Below, piece after piece: positions 27,183-62,108 of a DNA stretch of 64,000 nucleotides. Position numbers and translations under genes: made by a program. Position 1 is the first letter of the stretch; each line of letters opens with the position of its first letter. The stretch comes from an uncultured Bacilli bacterium (GTDB lineage: Bacteria; Bacillota_I; Bacilli_A; RF39; UBA660), in the NCBI GenBank assembly GCA_934130175.1, contig CAKOXP010000003.1, positions 27,494 through 91,493 of the forward strand, read 5' to 3'. The notes under the pieces are model-generated. The model did not search any database. It was not told where the DNA came from and worked only from the letters and a program-made list of their open reading frames with translations.

Positions 27183-28493
27183 TTATTCATCTCCACTTCT
27201 ATTTTTAAATTGTAAAATAATTGGAGTTCCTTCTAAATCAAAATTCTCACGTAATTTATTTTCTAAATATCTTTCGTATGAGAAGTGAACTAATCCTTTA
27301 TTATTAACTCTTAAAGTGAATTTTGGTGGTTTAATACCAGTTTGACTTGTAAAATATATTTTAAGTCTTTTTCCTTTATAAGAAGGTGGAATATTTAATT
27401 GATAAGCATCTAAGATAACATCATTTAAAACGCTTGTCTTTATTTCTTTCTTAATATTTTCACTTACTTTAATAACCTCAGGCATCAATGTATGAATTCT
27501 TTTTTTAGTTAGAGCTGATAATACAACTATCGGAGCATACGGTGCGAATTGGAATTCAGCTCTCATAAGCTTTTTAAAATCTTGAATAGTAGTATCTTTT
27601 ACCATATCCCATTTATTAACAACAAAAATAATTCCTTTACCTTTTTCAATAGCGTATCCAGCAATATGTTTATCGTGTTCAGTAATACCTTCTTCGGCAT
27701 TAATTACAACTAGACAAACATCACTTCTATCTATTGCTCTCATTGATCTTAAAAGACTATACTTCTCAATTGATTCAAAAACACGTCCTTTTTTTCTCAT
27801 ACCAGCAGTATCAATTAAAATATATTCTTCTTTTTGATATTTTAAAATAGAGTCTATTGAATCTCTTGTAGTTCCAGCAATATTAGAAACAACAACACGT
27901 TCTTCATTAAGAAGCGCATTCATTAAAGAACTTTTTCCAACATTAGGACGACCAATAATACTTAGTTTTAATCTTTTATCATCATCATTGTTATCATTTT
28001 CATGAAAATCCATTGTAATAGTATCAAGTAACTCTACATAACCAGTATTGTGAATACTACTAATTGGTATATAAGTATCAAATCCTAATTCATAAAAATC
28101 ATATAAATTATCTTTAGCTTCTTTAACATCTATTTTATTAATTGCGACAATAACTTTTTTATTGCTCTTTCTTAAAATATCTCTAACAACTAAATCGTTA
28201 TGTGTAAGTCCTTCCTTACCATCAACAACAAATAAAATGATATCTGCTTCTTCAATCGCAATTTCGGCTTGTATTTTAATTTCAGCATTAAAACTTTGAT
28301 TACTAACATCAATACCACCAGTATCGATTAAAAAGAATTTTTTACCATTATAATTAGCTTCTTGATAAAGTCTATCCCTAGTTACTCCAGGAACATCTTC
28401 AATTATCGCAACTTTTTTACCTACAATTTTATTAAAAAGGGTACTTTTCCCAACATTAGGTCTTCCCACTATTGCAACCACAGGTACTGCCAT
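27183..28493 (-). CDS. der: Ribosome biogenesis GTPase Der (EngA), tandem GTPase domains plus KH-like
   Basis: Two G domains (GRPNVGKSTLFN; GRPNVGKSSLMN) and a C-terminal KH-like domain. Confidence 0.92.
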   Translation of the reverse strand: MAVPVVAIVGRPNVGKSTLFNKIVGKKVAIIEDVPGVTRDRLYQEANYNGKKFFLIDTGGIDVSNQSFNAEIKIQAEIAIEEADIILFVVDGKEGLTHNDLVVRDILRKSNKKVIVAINKIDVKEAKDNLYDFYELGFDTYIPISSIHNTGYVELLDTITMDFHENDNNDDDKRLKLSIIGRPNVGKSSLMNALLNEERVVVSNIAGTTRDSIDSILKYQKEEYILIDTAGMRKKGRVFESIEKYSLLRSMRAIDRSDVCLVVINAEEGITEHDKHIAGYAIEKGKGIIFVVNKWDMVKDTTIQDFKKLMRAEFQFAPYAPIVVLSALTKKRIHTLMPEVIKVSENIKKEIKTSVLNDVILDAYQLNIPPSYKGKRLKIYFTSQTGIKPPKFTLRVNNKGLVHFSYERYLENKLRENFDLEGTPIILQFKNRSGDE

Positions 28494-40006: not shown

Positions 40007-40070
40007 ACTATAATATAAATAGATAGAATTTCTTATTTAAAAGTAAGAAATTTTATTTTTAAGTAAAATA

Positions 40071-40083
40071 AAACAATTGTTCG
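40071..40083 (+). promoter_or_regulatory. Degenerate LexA (Cheo-box-like) candidate upstream of recA
   Basis: AAACAATTGTTCG compared with GAAC-N4-GTTC: the left half-site has one mismatch. Lies about 70 nt upstream of the recA start. Confidence 0.25.
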
Positions 40084-40151: not shown

Positions 40152-41177
40152 ATGGCAAAACAAGTAGAAAAAGAAACAAACAAAGATAAGGCACTTGAAC
40201 AAGTTTTAAGTGATATTGAAAAACAATTTGGTAAGGGTTCAATTATGAAACTTGGAGATAACACTCACATGAAAGTGGATGTATGCTCTAGTGGATGTTT
40301 ATCTCTAGATATAGCATTAGGTGTTGGTGGTTATCCTAGGGGAAGAATTATTGAAATTTATGGTCCAGAATCAAGTGGTAAAACAACTTTTGCATTACAA
40401 GCAATAGCAGAACAACAAAAAGCAGGAGGTCGTGCTGCATTTATCGATGCAGAACATGCTTTAGATCCTGAATATGCAAAAAAATTAGGAGTAAATATAA
40501 ATGATTTATTACTAGCTCAACCAGATACAGGAGAACAAGCTCTAGAAATATGTGAGGCTTTAGTTCGTAGTGAAGCAGTTAGTATTGTAGTAATTGATTC
40601 AGTAGCAGCTTTAGTTCCACAAGCTGAAATTGATGGTGATATGGGAGATTCACATGTTGGACTACAAGCTCGATTAATGTCACAAGCATTAAGAAAATTA
40701 TCTGGTACAATTAATAAAACGAAAACAACTGCAATTTTCATTAATCAATTGAGAGAAAAGGTTGGAGTTATGTTTGGAAATCCAGAAACTACACCAGGTG
40801 GTAGAGCTTTAAAATTCTACTCTTCTGTTAGACTTGATATTAGAAGAAATGAACAATTAAAAATGGGTGATGGAGTAGTTGGAAATAAAACAACAGTTAA
40901 AGTAGTTAAGAATAAAGTGGCTCCACCATTTAAATCAGCAGTAGTTGATATTATGTATGGAGAAGGAGTTTCTCGTGAAGGTGAAATAATTGATTTAGGT
41001 TCAGAAGCTGGAATTATTCAAAAAACAGGAGCATGGTATTCATACAATGGTGAAAAACTTGGTCAAGGTAAAGAAAATGTTAAACTTCTTTTAAAAGACA
41101 ATAAGGAACTAAAAGAAGAGTTAGAAGCAAAGGTAAGAGAGTATTACGGAATTTCTTTAGATAGTGAAAACAAGTAA
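40152..41177 (+). CDS. recA: Recombinase RecA
   Basis: Walker [11 protein letters not shown]1/L2 loops and a canonical N-terminus ([24 protein letters not shown]). Confidence 0.95.
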
Positions 41178-42082: not shown

Positions 42083-43480
42083 ATGAAGTATTTAGATGAT
42101 TTATATAAAGGTGAAAAACATATTCCTATTAGAGATATAAAAACTGATTCTAGGAATATTGAATCAGGAGATTTATTTGTAGCAATAAAAGGTTTCAATG
42201 TTGACCATAGTGAATTTGTTGATGATGCAATTAAAGCAGGGTGTTCTGCTGTTGTTAGTGATAAACATCTGGAAAAAAGTGTTCCATGTATTAAAGTTGG
42301 TAATTTAAGTGAAGAATTAACAAGACTTTGTAAAGAATTTTACAATTATAATAATGATTTAGAATTAATTGGTATTACAGGAACAGATGGTAAAACAACA
42401 ACTGCAACAATTATTCACCAATTACTTTCCAATTTTACAAAGAATGCATATCTTGGTACCAATGGTATTTGCTATAATAATATAAAACAAAAAACTGAAA
42501 ATACAACTCCTAGTAAAGAATATCTGTATAAGTGTTTTTCTTCTTTAAGAGATGCTAATTGTAAAAGCGTTGTAATGGAAACATCTAGCGAAGCCCTACT
42601 TCATGATAGAGTAGATTCCTTTAAATTTAAGTATGCTATATATACAAATATTACGGAAGATCATTTAAACATTCATAAAACTTTAGAAAACTATATTAAT
42701 TCTAAATTAAAACTAATTAATTACTTAAATAAAGATGGAGTAATTATTTTAAATAGTGACGATGAGGTTTTAAAAGATATTGCTAGTAGTCATAAAATAT
42801 ATACATATGGTAAAAACAGTCAAGCAGATTTTCAGATACTTGATATTAATTTAGATCCTAAAACAACATTTAAAATAAAATATTTAAATAAAATTTATGA
42901 ACTTGAAAGTCCTTATCCTTTTGAATATAACATCTATAATTTAACAGTGGGATTCATAGTTTGTGTTTTAGAAGGATATAATGCAGAAGAAATTATTCGG
43001 TATATAAGAAAATTAAAGCCAATCTCTGGAAGAAGTGAAGAATTAAATTTTAAAACAGATTATCATATTATTTTAGACTATGCTCATACTTTAAATGGAA
43101 TTAAGAACTTAATTGAAAACGTTAAAAACTACCATAAAAGAGTAATAGTGGTTACGGGTTCTGCTGGTGGTAGAGAAAAAGAAAAAAGAAGTAAGATAGG
43201 TTCATATTTATTAGATAATGCCAATTTTGTTGTTTTCACAATGGATGATCCTAGATATGAAAAAGTTGATGATATTATTGATGATATGTTAAAAGATACA
43301 AACAAGAATAATTATACAAGGATAGTAGATCGAAAAGAAGCTATTAATTATGCCTTGAGTCATGCTAAAAAAGATGATTATATTTTAATTATTGGTAAAG
43401 GTAGAGATAATTATATGGCACTTGAAGATAAAAAAGTTCCTTATTCAGACTATGAAGTAATAAAATCATATTTTGACTAG
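42083..43480 (+). CDS. murE: UDP-N-acetylmuramoyl-L-alanyl-D-glutamate--L-lysine (or mDAP) ligase MurE
   Basis: Mur ligase ATP-binding site GITGTDGKTTT with N- and C-terminal Mur ligase domains. It is stand-alone (not in a dcw cluster), as in Lys-type cocci. Confidence 0.85.
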   Translation: MKYLDDLYKGEKHIPIRDIKTDSRNIESGDLFVAIKGFNVDHSEFVDDAIKAGCSAVVSDKHLEKSVPCIKVGNLSEELTRLCKEFYNYNNDLELIGITGTDGKTTTATIIHQLLSNFTKNAYLGTNGICYNNIKQKTENTTPSKEYLYKCFSSLRDANCKSVVMETSSEALLHDRVDSFKFKYAIYTNITEDHLNIHKTLENYINSKLKLINYLNKDGVIILNSDDEVLKDIASSHKIYTYGKNSQADFQILDINLDPKTTFKIKYLNKIYELESPYPFEYNIYNLTVGFIVCVLEGYNAEEIIRYIRKLKPISGRSEELNFKTDYHIILDYAHTLNGIKNLIENVKNYHKRVIVVTGSAGGREKEKRSKIGSYLLDNANFVVFTMDDPRYEKVDDIIDDMLKDTNKNNYTRIVDRKEAINYALSHAKKDDYILIIGKGRDNYMALEDKKVPYSDYEVIKSYFD

Positions 43481-43551
43481 TAGATCTTGTTGATAAATTG
43501 TAAAAATTTAACAAAAATGCTATAATACTACTCAATTAGGTGTGTGGTAAT

Positions 43552-46290
43552 ATGTTGAATGAGGAAAAAATATTGATATTGGATAAAGATGATAGAGATA
43601 TTACAGCCAAAGTAGTAGATTATACTTCTTCTAAGGTTATAGTTAAGTTTGGTAATAAGAGTTATCCGTATAAAATTTCAAATTTAAAAATAATATCAAA
43701 TCCAACAATACTCGATAATTGTATAATAAAAACACAAAATGTGACTCTTTCAAATGTTTCAAAAACGATTAAGTTTGATAATTATATAAAAGTTTTTTTT
43801 AGTAATGGAAAAAATAAGATTTATGAAGAATCAGAGTTGACTATGAAAAGAAATATGTTAAGTAGCTCTAGAATTTCAAATGTTTTTAACTATTTTAAAG
43901 AAATGGCATCTAATCTCCGAATAGAAGAAGTAAATCCTGAATTAACAGAACAAAAAAATGATTCCACATTCTTAAGTGGAATTTATGAAAAAATTGGGTT
44001 TATTCTTGAAGATTCAGTAGTAAATGAATATATTAATGGTTTGAACAATGTGAATAATTTCTTTAAAATTAATAATAACAAGATATTTCCATTTAGTTTT
44101 AATTTAAGTCAACAAAAAGCAGTAAAAAATGCTTTTTCAAATAAAATAAGTGTTATTGAAGGACCTCCTGGAACAGGAAAAACACAAACTATTTTAAATA
44201 TTATATCTAATGCTATAGTAAATAATAAAACAATAGCTGTCTTATCAAATAATAACAGTGCTACTGACAATGTATATGAAAAATTAGAGGATAAGAATTT
44301 GGGCTCTTTATGTGCTAAGTTAGGTAAAAAAGATAATATAAATAAATTTTTATTAGAACAGAATAACATAAAAAAATATCCAAGTAATTGGAGATTAAGT
44401 GATAAAGATATATCAGAAATTAAATTAAATCTATCATCTATGAATGAAGATATCGAATGGTATTTAAAAGAAAAAAATGAATTAGCTGTTTTAAAACAAG
44501 AATTGGCGGAATTAATTATAGAAGAAAAGTATTTTAAAAATAAAGATGATAATTTTAATTTAAAAAGTTTATTGTTGCCAGATTTTAATTCTTTGAAACT
44601 ACATAAATTTTTAATGTTCTTAAATGGACAAAAAAATAGTAAAGAATATTTTAGTAAGAAAGTACAATTATTATCATATATAAAGTTTAAATTTTTTAGT
44701 AAAAATTTCTATGAGAATAAAATTGAAATTATTTTGGATTCATTAGAAATGTTATATTATGAGAAAAGAATAAGTGAATTAAAGAAGATAATTGATGAAG
44801 AAGAAGAAAAGTTTAAATATTTGGACTTAGAAAAGAAATTTAAAGAATATACTGATAAATCGATGAAAATATTAAAAAATATTGTTTATAGAAATTATAA
44901 TAATAAGAAAATGTATGATACAAATACTATTAAAAATACAGAAAAATTAATAAAAGATTATCCTATAATTTTGAGCACTACATATTCTTTATTAAATTCT
45001 ATAGACCAAAGTTTTATGTTTGATTATATAATTATTGATGAATCTTCTCAGGCTGATTTGATTTCAACTTTCCCTGTTCTTACTAAAGCTAAAAATATAG
45101 TAATTGTGGGAGATTCAAAACAATTACCTAATATAGTAGATATCAATAAAAAAGATGATTATAACGAGATTTTTCAAAAGTATAATATCGATAAAAAATT
45201 TAATTATACTGAAAATAGTTTGCTAGATTCTATAAAAAAAGTTGATAATATTTTGGAACCTGTAATATTAAAAGAACACTATAGATGTCATCCTAAGATA
45301 ATTAATTTTTGTAATAAAAAATTTTACGATGATCAATTAATTATATTATCAGAAGCATCAAATAATGAACCAATAAAGAGATACAAATGTGTAAAAGGTA
45401 ACCATGCTAGGAAGAATAAGGGAAGTTGGTTTAATGATAGACAAGCAATAGTTATAGAAAATGAAATTATACCAAAAGAGAAAATAGATATATATAATGA
45501 TTCTGTTGGGATTATTACTCCATATAAGGAACAAAAGAAATATTTAAAAAATATTTTTAAATGTGATAATATAGCGATTGATACTGTACATGGTTTTCAA
45601 GGAAGAGAAAAAAGTACTATTATTTTTAGTACTGTCGCTAATGAAATAACTAAATTTTTGGATAATCCTAATTCTATAAATGTTGCTATATCTAGAGCTG
45701 TAGATAAATTATATCTTGTAACACCATATGAGTATAAATCTAAAGATAATTCAAATATATCTAATTTGATTAGTTATATTAATTACAATAATTTTGAAAC
45801 TGTTCAAAGTAAGGTAGTCTCTGTGTTTGATTTATTATATAAGGTAAATGAAAAAGAAAAAAATAATTATTTAAAGACACATACAATTTTTTCAAAGTTT
45901 GATTCTGAAACAATTATGTATAATACTATAAAAGGAATATTGAAAATGGATAATTATAAAACATATGATGTAAAAGATAGAGTATATCCATTAAGAAAAG
46001 TAGTTACAAATAGGGAAATACTAACTGAAGAAGAATTAAGATTTATTAGGTATAATTCTCATATAGACTTTCTCATATATAATAAATTTGATAAACAACC
46101 CGTATTAGCAATAGAAGTTGATGGTTATTATTTTCATAATAGAAAAGAACAGATTATAAGAGATAGAAAAAAAGATAGTATATTGCAAAAATGTAATATT
46201 CCAGTATTAAGACTTAGAACTAATGAATGTAAAGAACAAGAAAGAATAATAACAAAACTTAATGAAATAATTTTAGAAAAACAAAGTTAG
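43552..46290 (+). CDS. SF1 (DNA2/Upf1-like) helicase fused to a C-terminal DUF2726/PD-(D/E)XK nuclease-like domain, with a ~190 aa N-terminal domain of unknown function
   Basis: Walker A GPPGTGKTQT (about 44165), motif II IIIDESSQ, motif III VGDSKQLPN, motifs V/VI GFQGREKSTIIFS and ISRAVDKLYLV. The C-terminus DFLIYNKFDKQPVLAIEVDGYYFHN...RDRKKDSIL...IPVLRL matches the DUF2726/DUF559 restriction-endonuclease-like fold. Promoter TTGTAA-17-TGcTATAAT upstream; start moved to ATG 43552 (RBS GGTGTGTGG). Confidence 0.7.
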   Translation: MLNEEKILILDKDDRDITAKVVDYTSSKVIVKFGNKSYPYKISNLKIISNPTILDNCIIKTQNVTLSNVSKTIKFDNYIKVFFSNGKNKIYEESELTMKRNMLSSSRISNVFNYFKEMASNLRIEEVNPELTEQKNDSTFLSGIYEKIGFILEDSVVNEYINGLNNVNNFFKINNNKIFPFSFNLSQQKAVKNAFSNKISVIEGPPGTGKTQTILNIISNAIVNNKTIAVLSNNNSATDNVYEKLEDKNLGSLCAKLGKKDNINKFLLEQNNIKKYPSNWRLSDKDISEIKLNLSSMNEDIEWYLKEKNELAVLKQELAELIIEEKYFKNKDDNFNLKSLLLPDFNSLKLHKFLMFLNGQKNSKEYFSKKVQLLSYIKFKFFSKNFYENKIEIILDSLEMLYYEKRISELKKIIDEEEEKFKYLDLEKKFKEYTDKSMKILKNIVYRNYNNKKMYDTNTIKNTEKLIKDYPIILSTTYSLLNSIDQSFMFDYIIIDESSQADLISTFPVLTKAKNIVIVGDSKQLPNIVDINKKDDYNEIFQKYNIDKKFNYTENSLLDSIKKVDNILEPVILKEHYRCHPKIINFCNKKFYDDQLIILSEASNNEPIKRYKCVKGNHARKNKGSWFNDRQAIVIENEIIPKEKIDIYNDSVGIITPYKEQKKYLKNIFKCDNIAIDTVHGFQGREKSTIIFSTVANEITKFLDNPNSINVAISRAVDKLYLVTPYEYKSKDNSNISNLISYINYNNFETVQSKVVSVFDLLYKVNEKEKNNYLKTHTIFSKFDSETIMYNTIKGILKMDNYKTYDVKDRVYPLRKVVTNREILTEEELRFIRYNSHIDFLIYNKFDKQPVLAIEVDGYYFHNRKEQIIRDRKKDSILQKCNIPVLRLRTNECKEQERIITKLNEIILEKQS

Positions 46291-46570
46291 TATTTTGATA
46301 TATATAAATGTTATCAAGGCAATCTAACACACAAATGAAAAAAATAAAAAGTACTAAAAATTATTGAATTACTATCTTATGATTAATAAGAAATAGAATG
46401 AAAATGATACCATAAGATTTTATGAGGTGGCTTATGTTTAAAATTATGGAAAGAATACAAACAATAAAAATTAGTTACACTTTGTTTTTACATAGTTTGT
46501 AACCACCACGATATTGGTCTATAGAGAAGCTATACTAGATAAAAAGGTAAAATATAAACAATTAATATAA

Positions 46571-46583
46571 GAATAAATGTTCG
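46571..46583 (+). promoter_or_regulatory. Candidate LexA (Cheo) box upstream of the dinD-like gene
   Basis: GAATAAATGTTCG compared with the consensus CGAACRNRYGTTCG. The GAAT variant is the one in the B. subtilis recA box (CGAATATGCGTTCG). Lies 32 nt upstream of the start codon, overlapping the likely promoter. Confidence 0.4.
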
Positions 46584-46614
46584 GCATGGTATATAGTGAG
46601 GTGATTTAGTAAAA

Positions 46615-47445
46615 ATGAGTAATATGGAAGAATATAAAGAAGAAATCTTTGAAAGTATAAAACATCTTGATGGATTTGGAAATGAGTTTTGGGAAGCAAG
46701 AGAATTAATGCCTTTACTAGAATATAGTAAATGGGAAAATTTTCATAAAGTTATAAAACGTGCAAAGATTGCTTGTGAAACTAGTAATAACAAAGTTAGT
46801 GACCATTTTCCTGAGTTCAGGAAAATGGTTGACATAGGATCAAATACAAAAAGAGAAATTAATGATTATCATTTATCTAGGTATGCTTGTTATTTAATAG
46901 TTCAAAATGCAAATCCTAGAAAAAAATCAGTGGCTCTTGGGCAAACATATTTTGCAGTACAAACTAGAAAGCAAGAAATTACTGAGTTAGAATATTCAAG
47001 ATTAACTGAAGATGAAAAAAGATTATATACTAGGATTCTTGTTAATAACAAAAATAAATATTTATTTAAAACTGCTAGAGAAGCAGGCGTAGAAAATTTT
47101 GGCAAATTTAATAATTATGGATATAAAGGACTTTATAATGGAGAAACAGCTAAACAAATCGCAAAACGTAAAAATATAAAAGAAGATGAAGATATTCTTG
47201 ATTATATGGGTAGTGAGGAACTAGGTGCAAATTTATTCCGTATTACACAAACAGAAGCTAAACTAAAAAAAGATAATATAAATAATGAAGATGATGCTTG
47301 TTTAACTCATTACAATGTAGGTAAAACCGTTAGAAGAGCGATTGAAGAACTTGGGGGTAATATGCCAGAAACTTTACCAACTCCAGAAAAATCCATAAAG
47401 GAATTGGAAAAAGATGAATTACAAAAAATCGGAAATAATCAATAA
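46615..47445 (+). CDS. DNA damage-inducible protein D-like (Bro-N/KilA-N domain protein)
   Basis: The N-terminus IFESIKHLDGFGNEFWEARELMPLLEYSKWENF is Bro-N-like. Central YACYLIVQNANPRKKSVALGQTYFAVQTRK resembles DinD-family proteins. RBS GTGAGGTGA 10 nt before the ATG. Confidence 0.55.
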   Translation: MSNMEEYKEEIFESIKHLDGFGNEFWEARELMPLLEYSKWENFHKVIKRAKIACETSNNKVSDHFPEFRKMVDIGSNTKREINDYHLSRYACYLIVQNANPRKKSVALGQTYFAVQTRKQEITELEYSRLTEDEKRLYTRILVNNKNKYLFKTAREAGVENFGKFNNYGYKGLYNGETAKQIAKRKNIKEDEDILDYMGSEELGANLFRITQTEAKLKKDNINNEDDACLTHYNVGKTVRRAIEELGGNMPETLPTPEKSIKELEKDELQKIGNNQ

Positions 47446-47640
47446 ATATAATTAGTAATATATAAAAATTATTGAAATCAAATTTATATGGTACACTTTA
47501 ATTGGCTTTAGTCGTTATACAACAAGGAATAAGAGCAAAATTTAAAAGAGATAAATTTTGTTTGGCTTGACAATAAAAAAAAATAACTCTACAATAGAAT
47601 TAGATTATGATTAAAAAATTATATTCTAATGGAGGTATAT

Positions 47641-49194
47641 ATGAATGATATAGTATTCTCCATTTTACTTATAATAGTTGGATTAGCAGCAGGTATAGGT
47701 ATAACTTTTATAGTTAACTTATTTAAAGAAAACACAACTTCTAAAAAAATAGAAAAACTTCTTAATCAAGCTAAAAAAGATGCTGATAAATTAAAAAGAG
47801 ATGCAATTTTAGAACAAAAAGAAGAACAACATAGATTAAAAATGGAATTAGACAAGGAAATTAAAGAAAAAAAAGAAGAAATAAAAGATTCAGAAGCAAG
47901 ATTATTACAACGTGAAGCTAACATGGATAAACGTGATGAAATGTATCAAAAAAGAGAACTTGCTTTAGATGAAAGAGAGTCTAAATTAACAGAAAGTTTA
48001 GATGAAATCCAAAATGAAAAAAGTAAAGTGGAAGAAATCAAAAAAGAACAACTAGAACTACTAGAGAAAATCTCAGGATTTAGTAAAGAAAAAGCAAAAG
48101 ATTTAGTTATGAAACAAGTAAAAGAAAACATGACTAAGGAAATCTCTGAATATATCAGAGAACAAGAAAACGAAGCAAAATTAACAGCAGACAAAACAGC
48201 TAAAGAAATGATTGTTACATCAATGCAAAAATATGCAGCTGATATAGCTAGTGATCAAACTGTTACAGTTGTGGAATTACCTAATGATGAAATGAAGGGT
48301 AGAATCATTGGTCGTGAAGGTAGAAATATCCGTACAATTGAAGCAATTACTGGGGTTGATTTAATTATTGATGATACTCCTGAAGCTGTTGTATTATCAA
48401 GTTTTGACCCTCTAAGAAGAGAGATTGCTTATGTTACACTTCAAACTCTAATCAAAGATGGAAGAATCCATCCAACAAGAATTGAAGAGTTATATGATAA
48501 AGTTTGCAAGGATATGAAACAAAAGATTATTGAGTATGGAACTGATGCAACATTTGAACTTGGATTAACTAAGTTTGATCCGGAATTAATTGAAATAATT
48601 GGTAAACTTCATTTCAGAACTAGTTATGGTCAAAATGCATTACAACATTCAATTGAAGTTGCTAATCTTTCTGGATTAATTGCAGCTGAACTTGGAGAAA
48701 ACGTAATGCTTGCAAAACGTGCTGGATTACTACATGATATTGGAAAAGCAATCGATCATGAAATAGAAGGAAGCCATGTTGAAATTGGTGTGGATATAGC
48801 TAAGAAATTTAAAGAAGATGAAGTTGTTATTAATTCAATTGCATCTCATCATGGTGATACAAAAGCTGATAGTATTATCGCAGTCATAGTTGCTATTGCT
48901 GATGCTTTAAGTGCATCCCGCCCAGGAGCAAGAAATGACTCTTTAGAAAACTACATTAAACGACTTACTCAACTTGAAGAAGTTGGAAACAGCATTCCTG
49001 GAGTTGAAACATCATATGCAGTTCAAGCTGGTCGTGAACTAAGAGTTATTGTAAAACCAGAAGAAGTTGATGACCTACAAGCTCATAAAATTGCTAGAGA
49101 TGTAAAAGAAAAAATAGAGGAAACAATGAAATATCCTGGAACTGTAAAAATTACAGTAGTACGTGAAACTCGTGCTCAAGAAGAAGCTAAATAA
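47641..49194 (+). CDS. rny: Ribonuclease Y
   Basis: N-terminal TM helix, coiled coil, KH domain ([15 protein letters not shown]) and HD domain (LLHDIGKA...). Start ATG 47641 with the RBS AATGGAGG. Confidence 0.92.
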
Positions 49195-52905: not shown

Positions 52906-55053
52906 ATGTTTGATAAAATAGTATATATTAGTGATAGGTCTGCTAATATCAAATTAAAAGAAGGAACAGATGTAAAGATAAATTTAATGAACTTACACTT
53001 GATTTTTGAAGACAAAGATAAAAAAATACTAGGTGAAGTTGATGATGTTGATAAAGATCTTGTAAAAGCAAGATTCTTAGGAGAAATAGTAAATGGTAAT
53101 CTATTAGGTGGTGTTATCAGAAAACCATCACTAGATTCTACTATCAGAGTTATAACTAAAGAAGAAATTCCATTAATTGTTGGTTCAGAACGCCCTGGTT
53201 ATATGCCTTTAGGTGTAAGTCCTTTCTATAATGATTTTCCAGTTTACATGAATGTTAATAGTTTCTTTAGTAATCACTTTGCTATCTTTGGTAACAGTGG
53301 TTCAGGTAAAAGTTGTGGTGTCTCAAGAATTATTCAAAATATGTTTCATGATAAAAATTTATTTCCATATAAGGCAAATATATTTATGTTTGATTCCTCT
53401 GCAGAATACTATAGTGCATTTCGTAATTTAAATGCCATTAATCCTAACTTTAATTATAGATTTTATTCAACTAATGAAAAAGAAGGAATCGGAGAAAAAT
53501 TAAGAATCCCTATTTGGTTACTTAATGTTGATGATTTATCTCTTTTATTACAAATTACTAATCATTCTCAAATTCCAATCATTGAAAGAATGTTGAAACT
53601 AGCTTTAATATTTTCTGAGGATGGAGAACGTGCTGAAGCATATAAAAACCATTTAATCGCTAAGGCAATTATGTCAATTTTATATACAAATGAAACATCT
53701 CCTAATAAAAGAAATGAAATATTTACAATTTTAGGTAGTTGTTCTACAAAGCAATTTAATTTAGAAGCTCCAGTACAAGGCATTGGTTACACTAGAAAGT
53801 TTAGAGAGTGTTTCTTAATCGATTCTCAAGGGAATTTCTCCGAAAGTGTTTTATTAAATGAATATGTTTCTAGTTTTATAAAAGAAGAATTTGATTCATA
53901 TGAACCAAAGGGTGGAACTTATTATGACCTAGATACATTAGAAAAAGCCCTAAACTTTACTTTGATTAGTGAAGGATGGTTAAGAAATAAAAATACTTAT
54001 GGTGATGCTGTTACAATTAGAGTTAGACTTCACTCATTAATAGTAGGTGAGTATGCTAAATATTTTGATTACAAAGATTATGTTACTCAAGAGCAATATC
54101 TTTCATCTTTATTGATAGATGGTGGTAAAAAATATCAATTTGTTAATATTAACTTTGATGATGTTGATGACTGGTTTGCTAAAGTTATTACAAAGGTTTA
54201 TACAAGAATTATTTTTGATTTCTGTAAAAATCTAAAAGATAGAGCGACAATTCCATTTAATATTATTGTAGAAGAAGCTCATAGATATATTCAAAATGAT
54301 ACAGATAGATTCTTACTTGGATATAATATATTTGAACGTGTTGCTAAAGAAGGTCGTAAATATGGTGTCTTACTTGGTTTGATTTCTCAAAGACCAGTAG
54401 AATTATCAGATACAGTTATTTCTCAATGTTCAAGTTTCTTAATATTTAAAATGAACCATCCAACAGATGTTGAATATATTAGAAAAATGGTTCCAAACAT
54501 TAGTGATGAAATTGTTGAAAAACAAAAAACACTTCAGGCTGGTACTTGTTTAGGCTTCGGTATGGCTTTTAAAATTCCTTTAATAGTTAAATTGAAAATG
54601 CCAGATCCAGAACCAAGAAGTGGTAACTGTGACGTGTGTAGAATTTGGAACGGAAATAAGAATATAGTAGTAAATCAACAACAAGAGCCAGCTGTAAGTC
54701 CGACTATTCAAAATAAGGTTGAAGAACCAGAACTTATTTCTAGTTCTGTATCAGAAAAAAACGATAGTGGAATAACACTTACAAATCAAGTATTAGAAAA
54801 ACAAAATAACGTGATTAATTCTAATAATTGGAGGGCAGCAGTTACTTCTTCAGAAGTAGTATCAACTGTTCCGGTTGAAAAAGTAAAAGAAACAAACCAA
54901 CAAGTAATTGAAGAACCTCTTATTACTCCTATAAACGATGAAGAAGAACCTTCACTAATTACTGTTCCAATAAAAAATGAAAATACTCCATCTAACTCAT
55001 TAGATATCAATGATATTATTAATGCACCAGATGAAGATAATAATATAGAATAA
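52906..55053 (+). CDS. HerA/DUF87-family P-loop ATPase (FtsK-HerA superfamily) with ~150 aa low-complexity C-terminal tail
   Basis: Walker A FAIFGNSGSGKSCG. Walker B plus helicase-type motif IIVEEAHRYI. C-terminal DUF87/HerA signature LGLISQRPVELSDTVISQCSSFLIFKMNHPTDVEYI. N-terminal beta-barrel-like about 110 aa. C-terminal S/T/N/E/P-rich tail. Own extended -10 promoter (TGTATAAT at about 52850) and a weak terminator at about 55056-55075. Confidence 0.65.
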   Translation: MFDKIVYISDRSANIKLKEGTDVKINLMNLHLIFEDKDKKILGEVDDVDKDLVKARFLGEIVNGNLLGGVIRKPSLDSTIRVITKEEIPLIVGSERPGYMPLGVSPFYNDFPVYMNVNSFFSNHFAIFGNSGSGKSCGVSRIIQNMFHDKNLFPYKANIFMFDSSAEYYSAFRNLNAINPNFNYRFYSTNEKEGIGEKLRIPIWLLNVDDLSLLLQITNHSQIPIIERMLKLALIFSEDGERAEAYKNHLIAKAIMSILYTNETSPNKRNEIFTILGSCSTKQFNLEAPVQGIGYTRKFRECFLIDSQGNFSESVLLNEYVSSFIKEEFDSYEPKGGTYYDLDTLEKALNFTLISEGWLRNKNTYGDAVTIRVRLHSLIVGEYAKYFDYKDYVTQEQYLSSLLIDGGKKYQFVNINFDDVDDWFAKVITKVYTRIIFDFCKNLKDRATIPFNIIVEEAHRYIQNDTDRFLLGYNIFERVAKEGRKYGVLLGLISQRPVELSDTVISQCSSFLIFKMNHPTDVEYIRKMVPNISDEIVEKQKTLQAGTCLGFGMAFKIPLIVKLKMPDPEPRSGNCDVCRIWNGNKNIVVNQQQEPAVSPTIQNKVEEPELISSSVSEKNDSGITLTNQVLEKQNNVINSNNWRAAVTSSEVVSTVPVEKVKETNQQVIEEPLITPINDEEEPSLITVPIKNENTPSNSLDINDIINAPDEDNNIE

Positions 55054-56506: not shown

Positions 56507-57838
56507 GTGAATATAGAGGAAAAAGCATTAAAGTTTGCTATTAAAGCTCACTATGGTCAGGTAAGAAAAAGTGAAAAGGATAAACCAATGATAGTTCATC
56601 CTATAAATGTAGGATATATTTTAAAAGAATATGATTTTGATGAAAATGTTGTTGCAGCAGGATATTTACATGATGTAGTAGAAGATACAAAATATGAAGA
56701 AAGTGATATTCTAAAGGAGTTTGGATCTGATATAGCTTCACTTGTTATGACAGCTAGTGAGCCTATAAAAAGTCTTCCTTGGGAAGAAAGAAAACAACAT
56801 ACAATTGACACAGTTAAAAATCTTGACTTAAGACATAAAGCAGTTGTTTGTGCAGACAAGATTAGTAACCTAGAAGATTTAATAATTCTTTCAGAAAAAC
56901 AAGGCAATTATGATTTTTCAGCATTTAATAGAGGTTATGATAGTCAAAAGTGGTATTATACAGAAATCTATAATTCACTAATACTTAATGACAGCCATCC
57001 TATGTTTGATAGATTAAAAAAACTATTAGATCATATTTTTTCAGGTAGTAAAGATAGCTATGTAGAAGAAGTTATCTATGATAATGATGATGAATATAGT
57101 AAAGTTTTAAAGCTTCATTATAAAAAGTTAGAATTAAACAAACTAAAAAATGTATTTGAAATTAATCCATACGTAATCGAATTTACTGGTACACCACGTA
57201 CAGGAAAAACTACCTTAATAAACAATTTAAAAGATTTCTTTAAAAAGGGTGGTTTTGATACAAGTATTTTAGAGGAGTTTACAACATCAGAAAGATATAA
57301 GAAAACTATTTTTCCAAAATTAAAAAATGAATACAAAAATGTTGTAAATATGGAAATTCCTAAATATGTTTTACAAGATTTAGAAGAAGAGTTACAAAAA
57401 AATAAAGACATAATTATTGTAGACAGATGTCTATTTGATAGATTAATTTGGGTAGATAGATTGTATCTAAAAGATGGTATGACTAAAAAAGAATATGATG
57501 ATTATAAAGAGTTTTATATTCCAAAAATCAAAGAAAAAATAAATATAATTATTTCAACTTATACTGATAGCCTTACTTCTATAAGAAGAGATTATAAAGC
57601 CAATTTATCTCTCGAAAAGAGGAGTTTCTTGAATGAGACCAATGTAGATGAATATAATAAATCATTATTTAATATGGAAAAAGTAGCTAAAGAAGAATCA
57701 ATTAATTTTCATATATTTGATACAACAAAAAAATCTGAAAGAGATATTTCTATTGAAGTTGCAAATAAAATTTTAGATGATATGAGAAAATTTTACTTAG
57801 TAGAAATAAATAAAAGAATTGGGCAAATAGTTAAGTAA
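56507..57838 (+). CDS. Fusion protein: RelA/SpoT-type HD hydrolase domain (small alarmone hydrolase-like) + P-loop nucleoside/nucleotide-kinase-like domain
   Basis: N-terminal ~180 aa ALKFAIKAHYGQVRKSEKDKPMIVHPINVGYIL...AAGYLHDVVEDT...EFGSDIASLV matches the (p)ppGpp-hydrolase HD domain, including the HD dyad. The C-terminal ~250 aa carries Walker A FTGTPRTGKTTL and an IIIVDRCLFDRLIWVDR segment resembling the dNK/NadR-type kinase DRS-like motif. GTG start at 56507 with AGGTGA 6 nt upstream. Confidence 0.6.
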   Translation: MNIEEKALKFAIKAHYGQVRKSEKDKPMIVHPINVGYILKEYDFDENVVAAGYLHDVVEDTKYEESDILKEFGSDIASLVMTASEPIKSLPWEERKQHTIDTVKNLDLRHKAVVCADKISNLEDLIILSEKQGNYDFSAFNRGYDSQKWYYTEIYNSLILNDSHPMFDRLKKLLDHIFSGSKDSYVEEVIYDNDDEYSKVLKLHYKKLELNKLKNVFEINPYVIEFTGTPRTGKTTLINNLKDFFKKGGFDTSILEEFTTSERYKKTIFPKLKNEYKNVVNMEIPKYVLQDLEEELQKNKDIIIVDRCLFDRLIWVDRLYLKDGMTKKEYDDYKEFYIPKIKEKINIIISTYTDSLTSIRRDYKANLSLEKRSFLNETNVDEYNKSLFNMEKVAKEESINFHIFDTTKKSERDISIEVANKILDDMRKFYLVEINKRIGQIVK

Positions 57839-60619: not shown

Positions 60620-60961
60620 ATGTTTAGAAGAGCAAATGAATTTGAAATAAATTCAGCAGTTTCTGGTAATAATAATGTTGTTGAAAATGAGATGAATGTT
60701 GATATTGACATGATTCAAAATAATCAAGCAACTGGTAATGACATGATGGCACCAAGCTATTATAACAGTCCAATTAAAGAAGCTGTAAAAGAGCGTTGTG
60801 TACACAGAACTATCGTTCATGAAGTACCACATATTTGTCCAATTAGAACAAGAATAATTAATCATCACGTATACAAACATACTTATCGTCCAGAATATTC
60901 TTGCTGCGAAGAAAATACAGTAAGTAATGTTCAATGCGGTTCTTGTAGTCAATTCAGATAG
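60620..60961 (+). CDS. Spore coat protein CotD-like (His/Pro/Cys-rich)
   Basis: The C-terminal half CVHRTIVHEVPHICPIRTRIINHHVYKHTYRPEYSCCEE has the H-x-x-P-H / HH repeat pattern of CotD-family inner coat proteins. RBS AGGAGG. Confidence 0.55.
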   Translation: MFRRANEFEINSAVSGNNNVVENEMNVDIDMIQNNQATGNDMMAPSYYNSPIKEAVKERCVHRTIVHEVPHICPIRTRIINHHVYKHTYRPEYSCCEENTVSNVQCGSCSQFR

Positions 60962-61271: not shown

Positions 61272-61361
61272 AAAGGCTTTTTCTTTTTTTTTAATTTTTC
61301 TAAAAAGTTTCCAACGAACGTAAGTTCTATGTTATAATATAGATATAAGAGGTGATGATAT

Positions 61362-62108
61362 TTGAAAATCTTAAAATATAAGAAATTAAAGTCACAGAAA
61401 TATCAAGTCTTTTTAGATAATTCAGAAATATTAGAATTATATGAAGAAACAATTTTAAAGTATGATTTATTAATAACAAAGAAAGTTGATGAGAAAATAC
61501 TAGAAGAATTGTTGGAATATAATAAAAAATACGAAGCCTATTATACTTGTTTAAAATATTTAAATGTCAGAGTAAGAAGTAGAAAAGAAATAAAAGATTA
61601 TTTAAAAAAGAAAGATTATAATGATGACGTTATTAATTATGTAATTGCTATCTTAGAAAAACAGGGGTATTTAAATGATTTGGCCTTTGCTAAAAGCTTT
61701 TTAAATAATAAATTAATTACTACTAATAATGGTCCTTATACCATTAGAAGAGATTTACTTAAACATGAAATTTCTACTAGTGATATTGATTTAGTACTTG
61801 AAGAGTACACAGATGATATTCAACTAGAAAAAATAAAAAAACATATAAATAGAATTATTAAATCAAATCGTAATAAAAGTAATATAGTTTTACAAAGAAA
61901 AATACTTATTGATTTGAACAACGAAGGTTTCAAGAAAAATTTAATCCAACAAGAAATTTCAAAAATTGATTTTGCTGATGACAAGGATTTGGCAAAGAAA
62001 GAGTATGATAAATTATATAAGAAATTAAGTAGAAAATACTCTGGAAGAGAATTAGAACTTAAAATCAAACAGAAATTATATCAAAAAGGATTTTCTATAG
62101 AACAATAA
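61362..62108 (+). CDS. recX: RecA regulator RecX
   Basis: Three tandem three-helix RecX repeats (e.g. SRKEIKDYLKKKDYNDDVINYVIAILEKQGYLND). TTG start 61362 with RBS AAGAGGTGA; -10 TATAAT at about 61333. Confidence 0.8.
   Translation: MKILKYKKLKSQKYQVFLDNSEILELYEETILKYDLLITKKVDEKILEELLEYNKKYEAYYTCLKYLNVRVRSRKEIKDYLKKKDYNDDVINYVIAILEKQGYLNDLAFAKSFLNNKLITTNNGPYTIRRDLLKHEISTSDIDLVLEEYTDDIQLEKIKKHINRIIKSNRNKSNIVLQRKILIDLNNEGFKKNLIQQEISKIDFADDKDLAKKEYDKLYKKLSRKYSGRELELKIKQKLYQKGFSIEQ

Follow-up and report, generated by a model that had tools for sequence, protein, structure and literature searches.

Between murE and rny of an uncultured Bacilli bacterium lie two genes, one encoding a predicted helicase-nuclease and the other a DinD-family protein with a predicted LexA operator in its promoter. 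They were studied within a stretch of 64,000 nucleotides (positions 27,494 to 91,493 of contig CAKOXP010000003.1; hereafter the window), for which the original prediction had proposed that the two genes form a coordinated, SOS-linked module for DNA repair or defence. That proposal is tempting, but the pair has two ancestries and separate promoters, the helicase promoter carries no LexA site, and the pairing is rare in other genomes. With a probability of about 0.7, we read the pair as two ordinary accessory cassettes brought side by side by chance, a patchwork and not a coordinated system. Both genes are new members of kinds already known, and the advance is low to moderate.

A strain-variable block of two cassettes

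The window is DNA of low guanine-cytosine content (about 25-30%), is 92% coding, and has as its closest genome records metagenome-assembled genomes labelled uncultured Bacilli, from human and animal gut. The gene order is pgsA, recA (40152-41177), an AIM24-family gene, murE (42083-43480), the helicase gene, dinD and rny (47629-49194). Both genes of interest are contained in a block of 4,060 bp (43492-47551, + strand) that is polymorphic for presence and absence within the species. For the comparison of strain classes, contigs encoding an identical RNase Y were used; loci fetched for this and the other comparisons are given here by L numbers. The block is absent from L170, L175, L177 and L178, in which murE is followed by rny after 89 bp and the flanking DNA is 95-99% identical to the window. 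It is present in the window and in L001-L005, L169, L171 and L172, while L173, L174 and L176 start within it. When the empty-site contigs are aligned to the window by BLASTN, the left homology stops at 43491 and the right homology restarts at 47552, with an overlap of 11 bp. The block is an accessory islet, inserted just after the murE stop codon; the accessory nature of the interval, previously deduced from synteny with B. subtilis, is seen directly in contigs of the same species that lack it. The closeness of the pair to recA, to which meaning had been attached, is incidental, since the insert is missing from sister strains.

The block is flanked by an imperfect 11-bp direct repeat. The left copy, TAGATCTTGTT (43481-43491), directly follows the murE stop codon, and the right copy, TAAATTTTGTT (47552-47562), is the same as the single copy present at the empty site. 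A target-site duplication was considered and rejected, the repeat being imperfect (9 of 11 positions) and the exact microhomology at the junction only about 2 bp. There is no recombinase gene among the genes of the block.

At the DNA level, each half of the block has different closest relatives. The helicase cassette (43494-46302, + strand), comprising promoter and gene, is 84% identical to L166, 77% to L167 and 72% to L168, with the homology beginning at the -35 element and stopping about 12 nt beyond the stop codon. The dinD cassette (46567-47477, + strand) comprises the operator, core promoter, gene and a trailer of about 30 nt, and is 91% identical to L006, 87% to L008 and 85% to L007, all of which are in other genomic contexts. 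The 264-bp spacer between the cassettes (46303-46566) has no DNA match among the fetched loci outside the species and no phage match; it has no significant predicted fold (z-score -1.6), and an Rfam search of 46200-47700 gave no match. By eye, a 22-codon open reading frame (ORF) with a ribosome-binding site can be seen in the spacer. A terminator scan found no + strand terminator between the helicase gene and dinD, so read-through from the former into the latter is possible.

Downstream of dinD, a 47-bp remnant (47476-47522, + strand) is 85% identical to positions 1916-1962 of L008, a segment that immediately precedes the gene for a large serine recombinase, itself a neighbour of dinD in that locus. 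The L008 recombinase ORF starts at 1982, and the 21-nt core of the remnant was found only in loci of the same species and in L008. The segment may have been left behind by the element that brought dinD in, or may form part of an attachment site; its similarity to L008 suggests that an integrative element was the source of the dinD cassette.

Elsewhere, the neighbours of dinD are heterogeneous. For a comparison set of 80 loci fetched from different species, large serine recombinases are found in 7 of 78 loci, mostly directly upstream of dinD. Other neighbours are a ComEC-like protein (6 loci), HsdM (5), HsdS (5) and RhuM (3); in about 5 of the 78 loci the dinD relative directly follows HsdM or is near HsdS. 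A dinD-like gene has been described on a phage-related island of pneumococcus (PMC10602874), and satellite phages of Streptococcus commonly encode full-length homologues annotated as DinD. Such satellites account for 11 of the 15 best phage records, most of them with dinD at the same coordinates, and in one that was inspected dinD adjoins the integrase gene.

This company, together with the recombinase-gene leader remnant and the presence in DinD of a Bro-N domain, a domain typical of phage antirepressors, would also fit a more far-reaching explanation, namely that the dinD cassette is the leftover of an integrative element, either a phage satellite or a serine-recombinase transposon. DinD would then be an SOS-triggered element factor, antirepressor-like or RecA-modulating, which times induction or transfer and is not a host repair protein; LexA-controlled antirepressors are known in the Gifsy prophages (PMC3121763). 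However, no recombinase, repressor or other element gene is left in the block, deletion of the dinD-like gene of the pneumococcal island had no strong effect on transformation (PMC10602874), and the sole biochemistry available for the family, that of E. coli DinD, points to RecA filaments. We consider this explanation unlikely.

Genes of the dinD family have also been found embedded in type I restriction-modification (RM) operons (PMC9881135). Cornish and Erill linked LexA sites to HsdS (COG0732) in gut Firmicutes, and B. subtilis LexA bound a rhuM-associated site in a gel-shift assay (PMC3998124). LexA-controlled dinD or rhuM genes inside type I RM operons could explain the link between LexA and HsdS. 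A related reading takes DinD as a mobile, self-contained SOS-sensing cassette instead of a host repair protein, with the helicase-nuclease perhaps supplying its single-stranded-DNA signal. We hold this to be improbable. A unit of LexA operator, promoter and gene would have been picked up by elements, restriction operons and defence islets of Firmicutes, and would couple DNA damage caused by phages or nucleases to a RecA-directed or element-directed response. The helicase-nuclease and DinD would form a loosely coupled damage-feedback pair, and the statistical link of LexA sites to HsdS in the gut SOS meta-regulon could be accounted for.

Whether the two genes form a unit can be judged from their promoters and from how often they meet. 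The helicase gene has its own sigma-70-type promoter (43498-43526, + strand), with TTGTAA and TATAAT separated by 17 nt and a TG extension (10 of 12 matches, with TG, in a promoter scan). No LexA-like site is found in the helicase promoter region at 43400-43560, where the matrix described below scores 0.68 bits at best, nor in the helicase promoters of homologues, where the highest score is 3.4 bits. A dinD gene is present at none of 83 helicase loci (80 distant ones from metagenomes and the 3 close ones, L166-L168), and a helicase of this family is near dinD at 1 of 77 dinD loci from other species. The exception is L006, where the DinD protein is 92% identical to that of the window and the helicase only 41%, and where an opposite-strand gene for a cell-wall hydrolase lies between the two genes.

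Two observations weigh against the patchwork reading: within this species the two genes come and go together as a single block, and L006 is a second neighbourhood of helicase-DUF2726 and dinD genes in a different chromosomal context. Because of these, some linkage of the pair is possible. They are also what can be said for the module as it was first proposed, in which the helicase-nuclease might, for example, process DNA while DinD tunes RecA on the products. Set against the separate DNA ancestries, the separate promoters (that of the helicase lacking a LexA site in the region scanned) and the near-absence of co-occurrence, with even the L006 pair being distant in sequence and interrupted, they leave a coordinated damage-induced module very doubtful. 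Neither conserved co-occurrence nor a shared promoter that would favour co-transcription was found for the pair, and the patchwork of two cassettes is the reading followed below.

DinD and its predicted LexA operator

The dinD gene (46615-47445, + strand) encodes 276 residues, with a Bro-N domain (residues 15-107) followed by a helical DinD C-terminal region. The product matches the NCBIfam DinD equivalog NF008573 over its full length, with 357.6 bits (cut-off 242) and residues 4-267 aligned to profile positions 5-272 of 288. The Bro-N domain is recognised by Pfam PF02498 (3.2e-9; 37.7 bits, cut-off 25.6), and the PADLOC profile PDC-S13 matches the full length with an E-value of 1.3e-106. Residues 12-265 of the protein are 55.4% identical to the product of the locus that E. 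coli record CP061233.1 annotates as dinD; the gene, first described as Bro-N/DinD-like, can be called a full-length dinD orthologue. The family is strongly conserved, with hundreds of homologues at 73-93% identity and about 54% identity to the proteobacterial ones. The AlphaFold model is confident for the Bro-N part only (predicted local distance difference test, pLDDT, 75-92; 61 overall), and DinD has no sequence relative in the PDB. E. coli DinD inhibits post-synaptic RecA filaments, according to Uranga et al. (2011) as cited in PMC10602874; by analogy, the DinD of the window may do the same. The top Foldseek match of the model, Deinococcus DdrC (7qvb_B), was rejected as a fold relative, the match being too weak (E 6.6e-3, template-modelling score 0.26-0.31). 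DdrC, which is thus a weak match of a low-confidence model, is also a damage-induced DNA-binding protein.

Tandem copies of dinD occur in other genomes. In the related uncultured Bacilli genome L045 (2774-6955), two dinD paralogues stand in tandem after murE, and next comes lexA, which has two boxes in its promoter; dinD seems to have landed repeatedly at the site downstream of murE. In L038 (5944-10828), dinD paralogues, three of them full-length and at least one truncated, stand in tandem directly after a 446-residue ORF with a YMDD motif, maybe a reverse transcriptase. The first 15 residues are identical in all four of these paralogues and the first 37 or so in two; their central and C-terminal parts have diverged. 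As a whole, the tandem resembles a cassette array that is diversifying.

In E. coli, dinD is one of the classic genes under LexA control, and the established LexA consensus of Gram-positive bacteria is CGAAC-N4-GTTCG. Upstream of the window dinD, the predicted Cheo-type LexA operator AGAATAAATGTTCG (46570-46583) matches this palindrome at 8 of the 10 specified positions, with a perfect right half-site; it contains the 13-mer GAATAAATGTTCG (46571-46583), located 45 nt upstream of the dinD ATG, and takes the same position in the promoter spacer as in orthologous dinD promoters. On its own, the pattern GAAYNNNNGTTC shows no enrichment in the window (5 strand-matches versus 2.6 expected, a number reached in 13 of 100 shuffles); only its position and its conservation in other genomes make the box meaningful. 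Such conservation is evident. Of 78 dinD loci, 19 have AAC-N4-GTT at -130 to -15 relative to the gene, where about 2 would be expected and 500 shuffles gave 7 at most. The instances commonly have an extended AACA..TGTT palindrome, followed by a -10 box. In promoter alignment A3 (the window and L006-L009), the -35 element, the box in the spacer and TATAAT are in register in L006-L009, and the position orthologous to the window box holds AGAACAAATGTTTG in L006 and L007.

A symmetric LexA matrix was built from 16 dinD-promoter sites, none of them from the species of the window. Scanned over the roughly 64,000 positions of the window, it places a site upstream of recA first, AAAACAATTGTTCG (40070-40083; 82 nt before the ATG), at 17.5 bits, with the next best site at 12.6 bits. 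The dinD site scores 10.5 bits. When only the intergenic DNA of the window is considered, the top three matches are recA, dinD and recX, and the fourth scores 5.2 bits. The predicted operator of recX, CGAACGTAAGTTCT (61315-61328), scores 9.1 bits, lies 47 nt before the start codon and is directly followed by TATGTTATAAT; the ORF at 61362-62108 is RecX by its Pfam RecX_HTH1-3 domains. With boxes at recA and recX, the LexA regulon of this lineage seems to be small and to have recX as a member. The matrix also recovers lexA promoters elsewhere. That of L045, an uncultured Bacilli genome, contains CGAATAAATGTTCG, which includes the exact 13-mer of the window, and AAAACATTTGTTTG, at 11.7 and 17.3 bits respectively, and the lexA promoter of L076 scores 11.5 bits. 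The near-consensus box that had been noted upstream of dinD is thus conserved in orthologous promoters and predicts the sites of recA, recX and lexA. The outcome of the matrix scan of the 64-kb window is mixed: the dinD site is the second-best intergenic match, but by score alone it ranks only sixth of about 64,000 positions.

Several caveats attach to the predicted operator of the window dinD. In the window, CATGGT stands in place of the TATAAT conserved among the orthologues. The closest good -10 element (TGgTATATA) is 4 nt further downstream and would put the transcription start inside the ribosome-binding site, so that the promoter may be weakened in the window strain. The score alone is unexceptional, matches at the level of the dinD box projecting to roughly 90 per Mb, and no lexA gene was found within the 64-kb window. 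All in all, the box is best read as a predicted Cheo-type LexA operator, well supported by the comparative evidence. The alternative that the palindrome arose by chance in AT-rich DNA, or serves a regulator other than LexA, for instance in autoregulation by the Bro-N domain of DinD, would suit its unenriched bare pattern, its GAAT instead of GAAC in the left half-site, its travelling with the gene, as an autoregulatory site would, and the lack of lexA in the window. It is highly improbable, as the motif equals the Gram-positive LexA consensus and the matrix derived from dinD promoters selects recA as the best site of the window, recX as well, and the lexA promoters of L045 and L076.

LexA control may differ among lineages. 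No CTG-N10-CAG, the LexA box of gamma-proteobacteria, was found upstream of the dinD homologues of Pectobacterium (L077) and Sideroxyarcus (L072), which means that not all members of the DinD family are under SOS control. In L012, a metagenome-assembled genome labelled Muribaculaceae, the dinD promoter (about 1040-1108) consists of TTGACT, CGTACAAATGTACT and TATAAA, with half-sites GTAC, not GAAC; a LexA of altered specificity or another repressor could account for the difference. In the window, a perfect GAACTATCGTTC palindrome is located inside an ORF for a cysteine-rich protein of 113 residues (60620-60961, no Pfam match) and is probably a chance LexA-like site.

The helicase-nuclease

The helicase-nuclease gene (43552-46290, + strand) encodes 912 residues, or 916 if the GTG at 43540 is used. 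The ATG at 43552 is more likely to be the start, because it has AGGTG 9 nt upstream and the gene callers give 912 residues on contigs of the same species. The AlphaFold2 model has a pLDDT of 87 and a predicted template-modelling score of 0.80. The fusion of a superfamily 1 (SF1) helicase to a DUF2726 nuclease, as originally described, is borne out by hidden Markov model searches of Pfam, which match AAA_11, AAA_12 and DUF2726.

The N-terminal domain (43552-44106, + strand) has about 185 residues, close to the 190 first estimated, and no Pfam match. In the model, residues 10-105 are predicted to be all-beta, forming two small barrels, and are followed by helices up to about residue 170. An exhaustive HMMER search retrieved only 158 clusters; all but two of the matches are at the N-terminus of their protein, in proteins of about 900 residues or in shorter, probably fragmentary ones. 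By these searches, the N-terminal 185 or so residues appear confined to this helicase-nuclease family.

The Upf1-like SF1B helicase core (44098-45723, + strand) is identified by Pfam, by PDB profiles and by Foldseek. AAA_11 matches residues 187-533 (7.7e-28) and AAA_12 residues 559-728 (3.2e-27), and the core holds a long helical insertion at about residues 288-453. Sen1, IGHMBP2, Upf1 and Dna2 are the PDB profile matches. With the whole model as query, the top Foldseek matches are SETX and Upf1 (E about 1e-20), and the helicase core alone is recovered. In an alignment of 31 homologues spanning 39-80% identity (A2), the Walker A motif GPPGTGK and the motifs DESSQ, GD.KQLP and SRA are invariant.

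The C-terminal domain (46009-46266, + strand) is a predicted DUF2726, or Vsr-like, PD-(D/E)xK endonuclease. DUF2726 matches residues 824-909 with 1.6e-13 and 50.9 bits (cut-off 24.7), the same stretch gives weaker matches to MTES_1575 and DUF559, and the domain is alpha/beta in the model. The predicted nuclease residues H841, D843, E859, D861, G862, H866 and K878 are invariant in alignment A2.

Clostridium, Halobacillus, Pedobacter and others have full-length relatives of about 905-920 residues. Among the proteins encoded repeatedly beside members of the family are type III Res, HsdR, McrB-like AAA_5, the YhcG nuclease, Macro and Nmad3, and the genes flanking the close loci L166-L168, which are without dinD, include AbiEii, Fic, HsdM/HsdS, Abi_2 and SIR2. 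By analogy, the protein most likely acts alone as a helicase-nuclease of the type found in defence islands, and in logic Hhe is the system nearest to it; it counts against this assignment that both the defence and the nuclease roles of the family are predictions from sequence comparison. As a widespread, uncharacterised family of about 910 residues, joining a helicase to a Vsr-type nuclease and bearing a private N-terminal domain, it is a reasonable candidate for single-gene defence. A gene for an Amidase_3 cell-wall amidase, or a fragment of one, is located just upstream of family helicase genes in L006 (5198-6454), L167 (5639-5947) and L168 (5231-5524), which suggests a preferred insertion spot for the helicase other than the murE site of the window.

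Other unusual insertions are present in the window, in the otherwise conserved ftsY-ylxM-ffh cluster: a gene for a HerA-like DUF87 ATPase (52906-55053) between ylxM and ffh, and an HD_4-AAA_28 fusion gene (56507-57838) after ffh. In L006, dinD is followed by an ORF of 444 residues, the N-terminus of which resembles, by eye, that of the HD_4 fusion.

Proposed mechanism and comparison with known systems

In the mechanism we propose, the islet would have been assembled from two independently mobile single-gene cassettes. The first would be transcribed from a sigma-70-type promoter of its own and lie outside LexA control; its ATP-driven translocase would bring the nuclease to nucleic acid that is foreign or aberrant, with the N-terminal domain acting as a sensor or regulator. 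The second would travel as dinD with its own promoter and Cheo-type operator, at which LexA would repress it. DNA damage, or single-stranded DNA generated by a phage or other element, would activate RecA, LexA would cleave itself and DinD would be made. If it acts like the E. coli protein, this DinD would attach to RecA filaments and destabilise them. When carried by a mobile element, its role may instead be to link the SOS response to defence or to the biology of the element. The two genes would be neighbours because both are cargo landing in variable spots, not because they work together. DinD appears to keep LexA control across phyla, with lineage-specific operators, and to move together with its operator, and its usual company of integrases, satellites and type I restriction operons suggests a role in mobile elements or defence over one in core repair.

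E. coli DinD (PcsA), the SOS-induced inhibitor of RecA filaments, is of the same length class as the window protein and has the same N-terminal Bro-N domain; a LexA operator is predicted in the promoter of the window gene. The window gene differs in that its predicted operator is of the Gram-positive GAAC-N4-GTTC type, that it is a strain-variable cassette in a low-GC lineage of gut Bacilli, and that its relatives are found on satellites, beside serine recombinases and inside type I RM operons. The GAAC-N4-GTTC palindromes to which Gram-positive LexA (Cheo/DinR) binds at recA, lexA and uvrB lie within the core promoter, as does the box at the window dinD, whose left half-site is GAAT and whose flanking base is A, not C; compared with orthologous dinD promoters, the -10 hexamer after the box is altered in the window strain. 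Among defence candidates, PADLOC PDC-S13 resembles the window dinD by profile match and by the location of some relatives next to HsdM/HsdS. The PDC sets are candidates predicted from genes that lie embedded in RM, BREX or DISARM systems (bioRxiv 10.1101/2024.01.29.577857), whereas the window dinD is not embedded in such a system and has the helicase gene and rny as its neighbours.

Eukaryotic Senataxin/Sen1, Upf1, IGHMBP2 and Dna2 share the fold and motifs of the helicase core, and Dna2 is also a helicase-nuclease fusion; identity to these proteins is about 13-20%, the fold and position of the nuclease differ, and the gene described here is a bacterial accessory gene. The PADLOC and NCBIfam matches to MkoA/MkoC, Hhe and ProA are confined to the helicase core and fall far below the family cut-offs. 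MkoA and MkoC of Mokosh are the best PADLOC matches of the window helicase (E 1.4e-50, in the helicase core only), but in the window no PLD nuclease is fused, as in MkoC, or adjacent, as MkoB is, and the nuclease is DUF2726. Hhe (Gao et al. 2020) is a single-protein defence system composed of DUF4011, an SF1 helicase, a Vsr-like endonuclease and DUF3320, to which the match is partial (84 bits for NCBIfam NF042953, cut-off 2000; 73 bits for PADLOC). The window protein is half the size, with no match to DUF4011 or DUF3320 and with its own family-specific N-terminal domain; like Hhe, it combines in one polypeptide an Upf1-like SF1 helicase with a C-terminal endonuclease of the Vsr/DUF559 clan.

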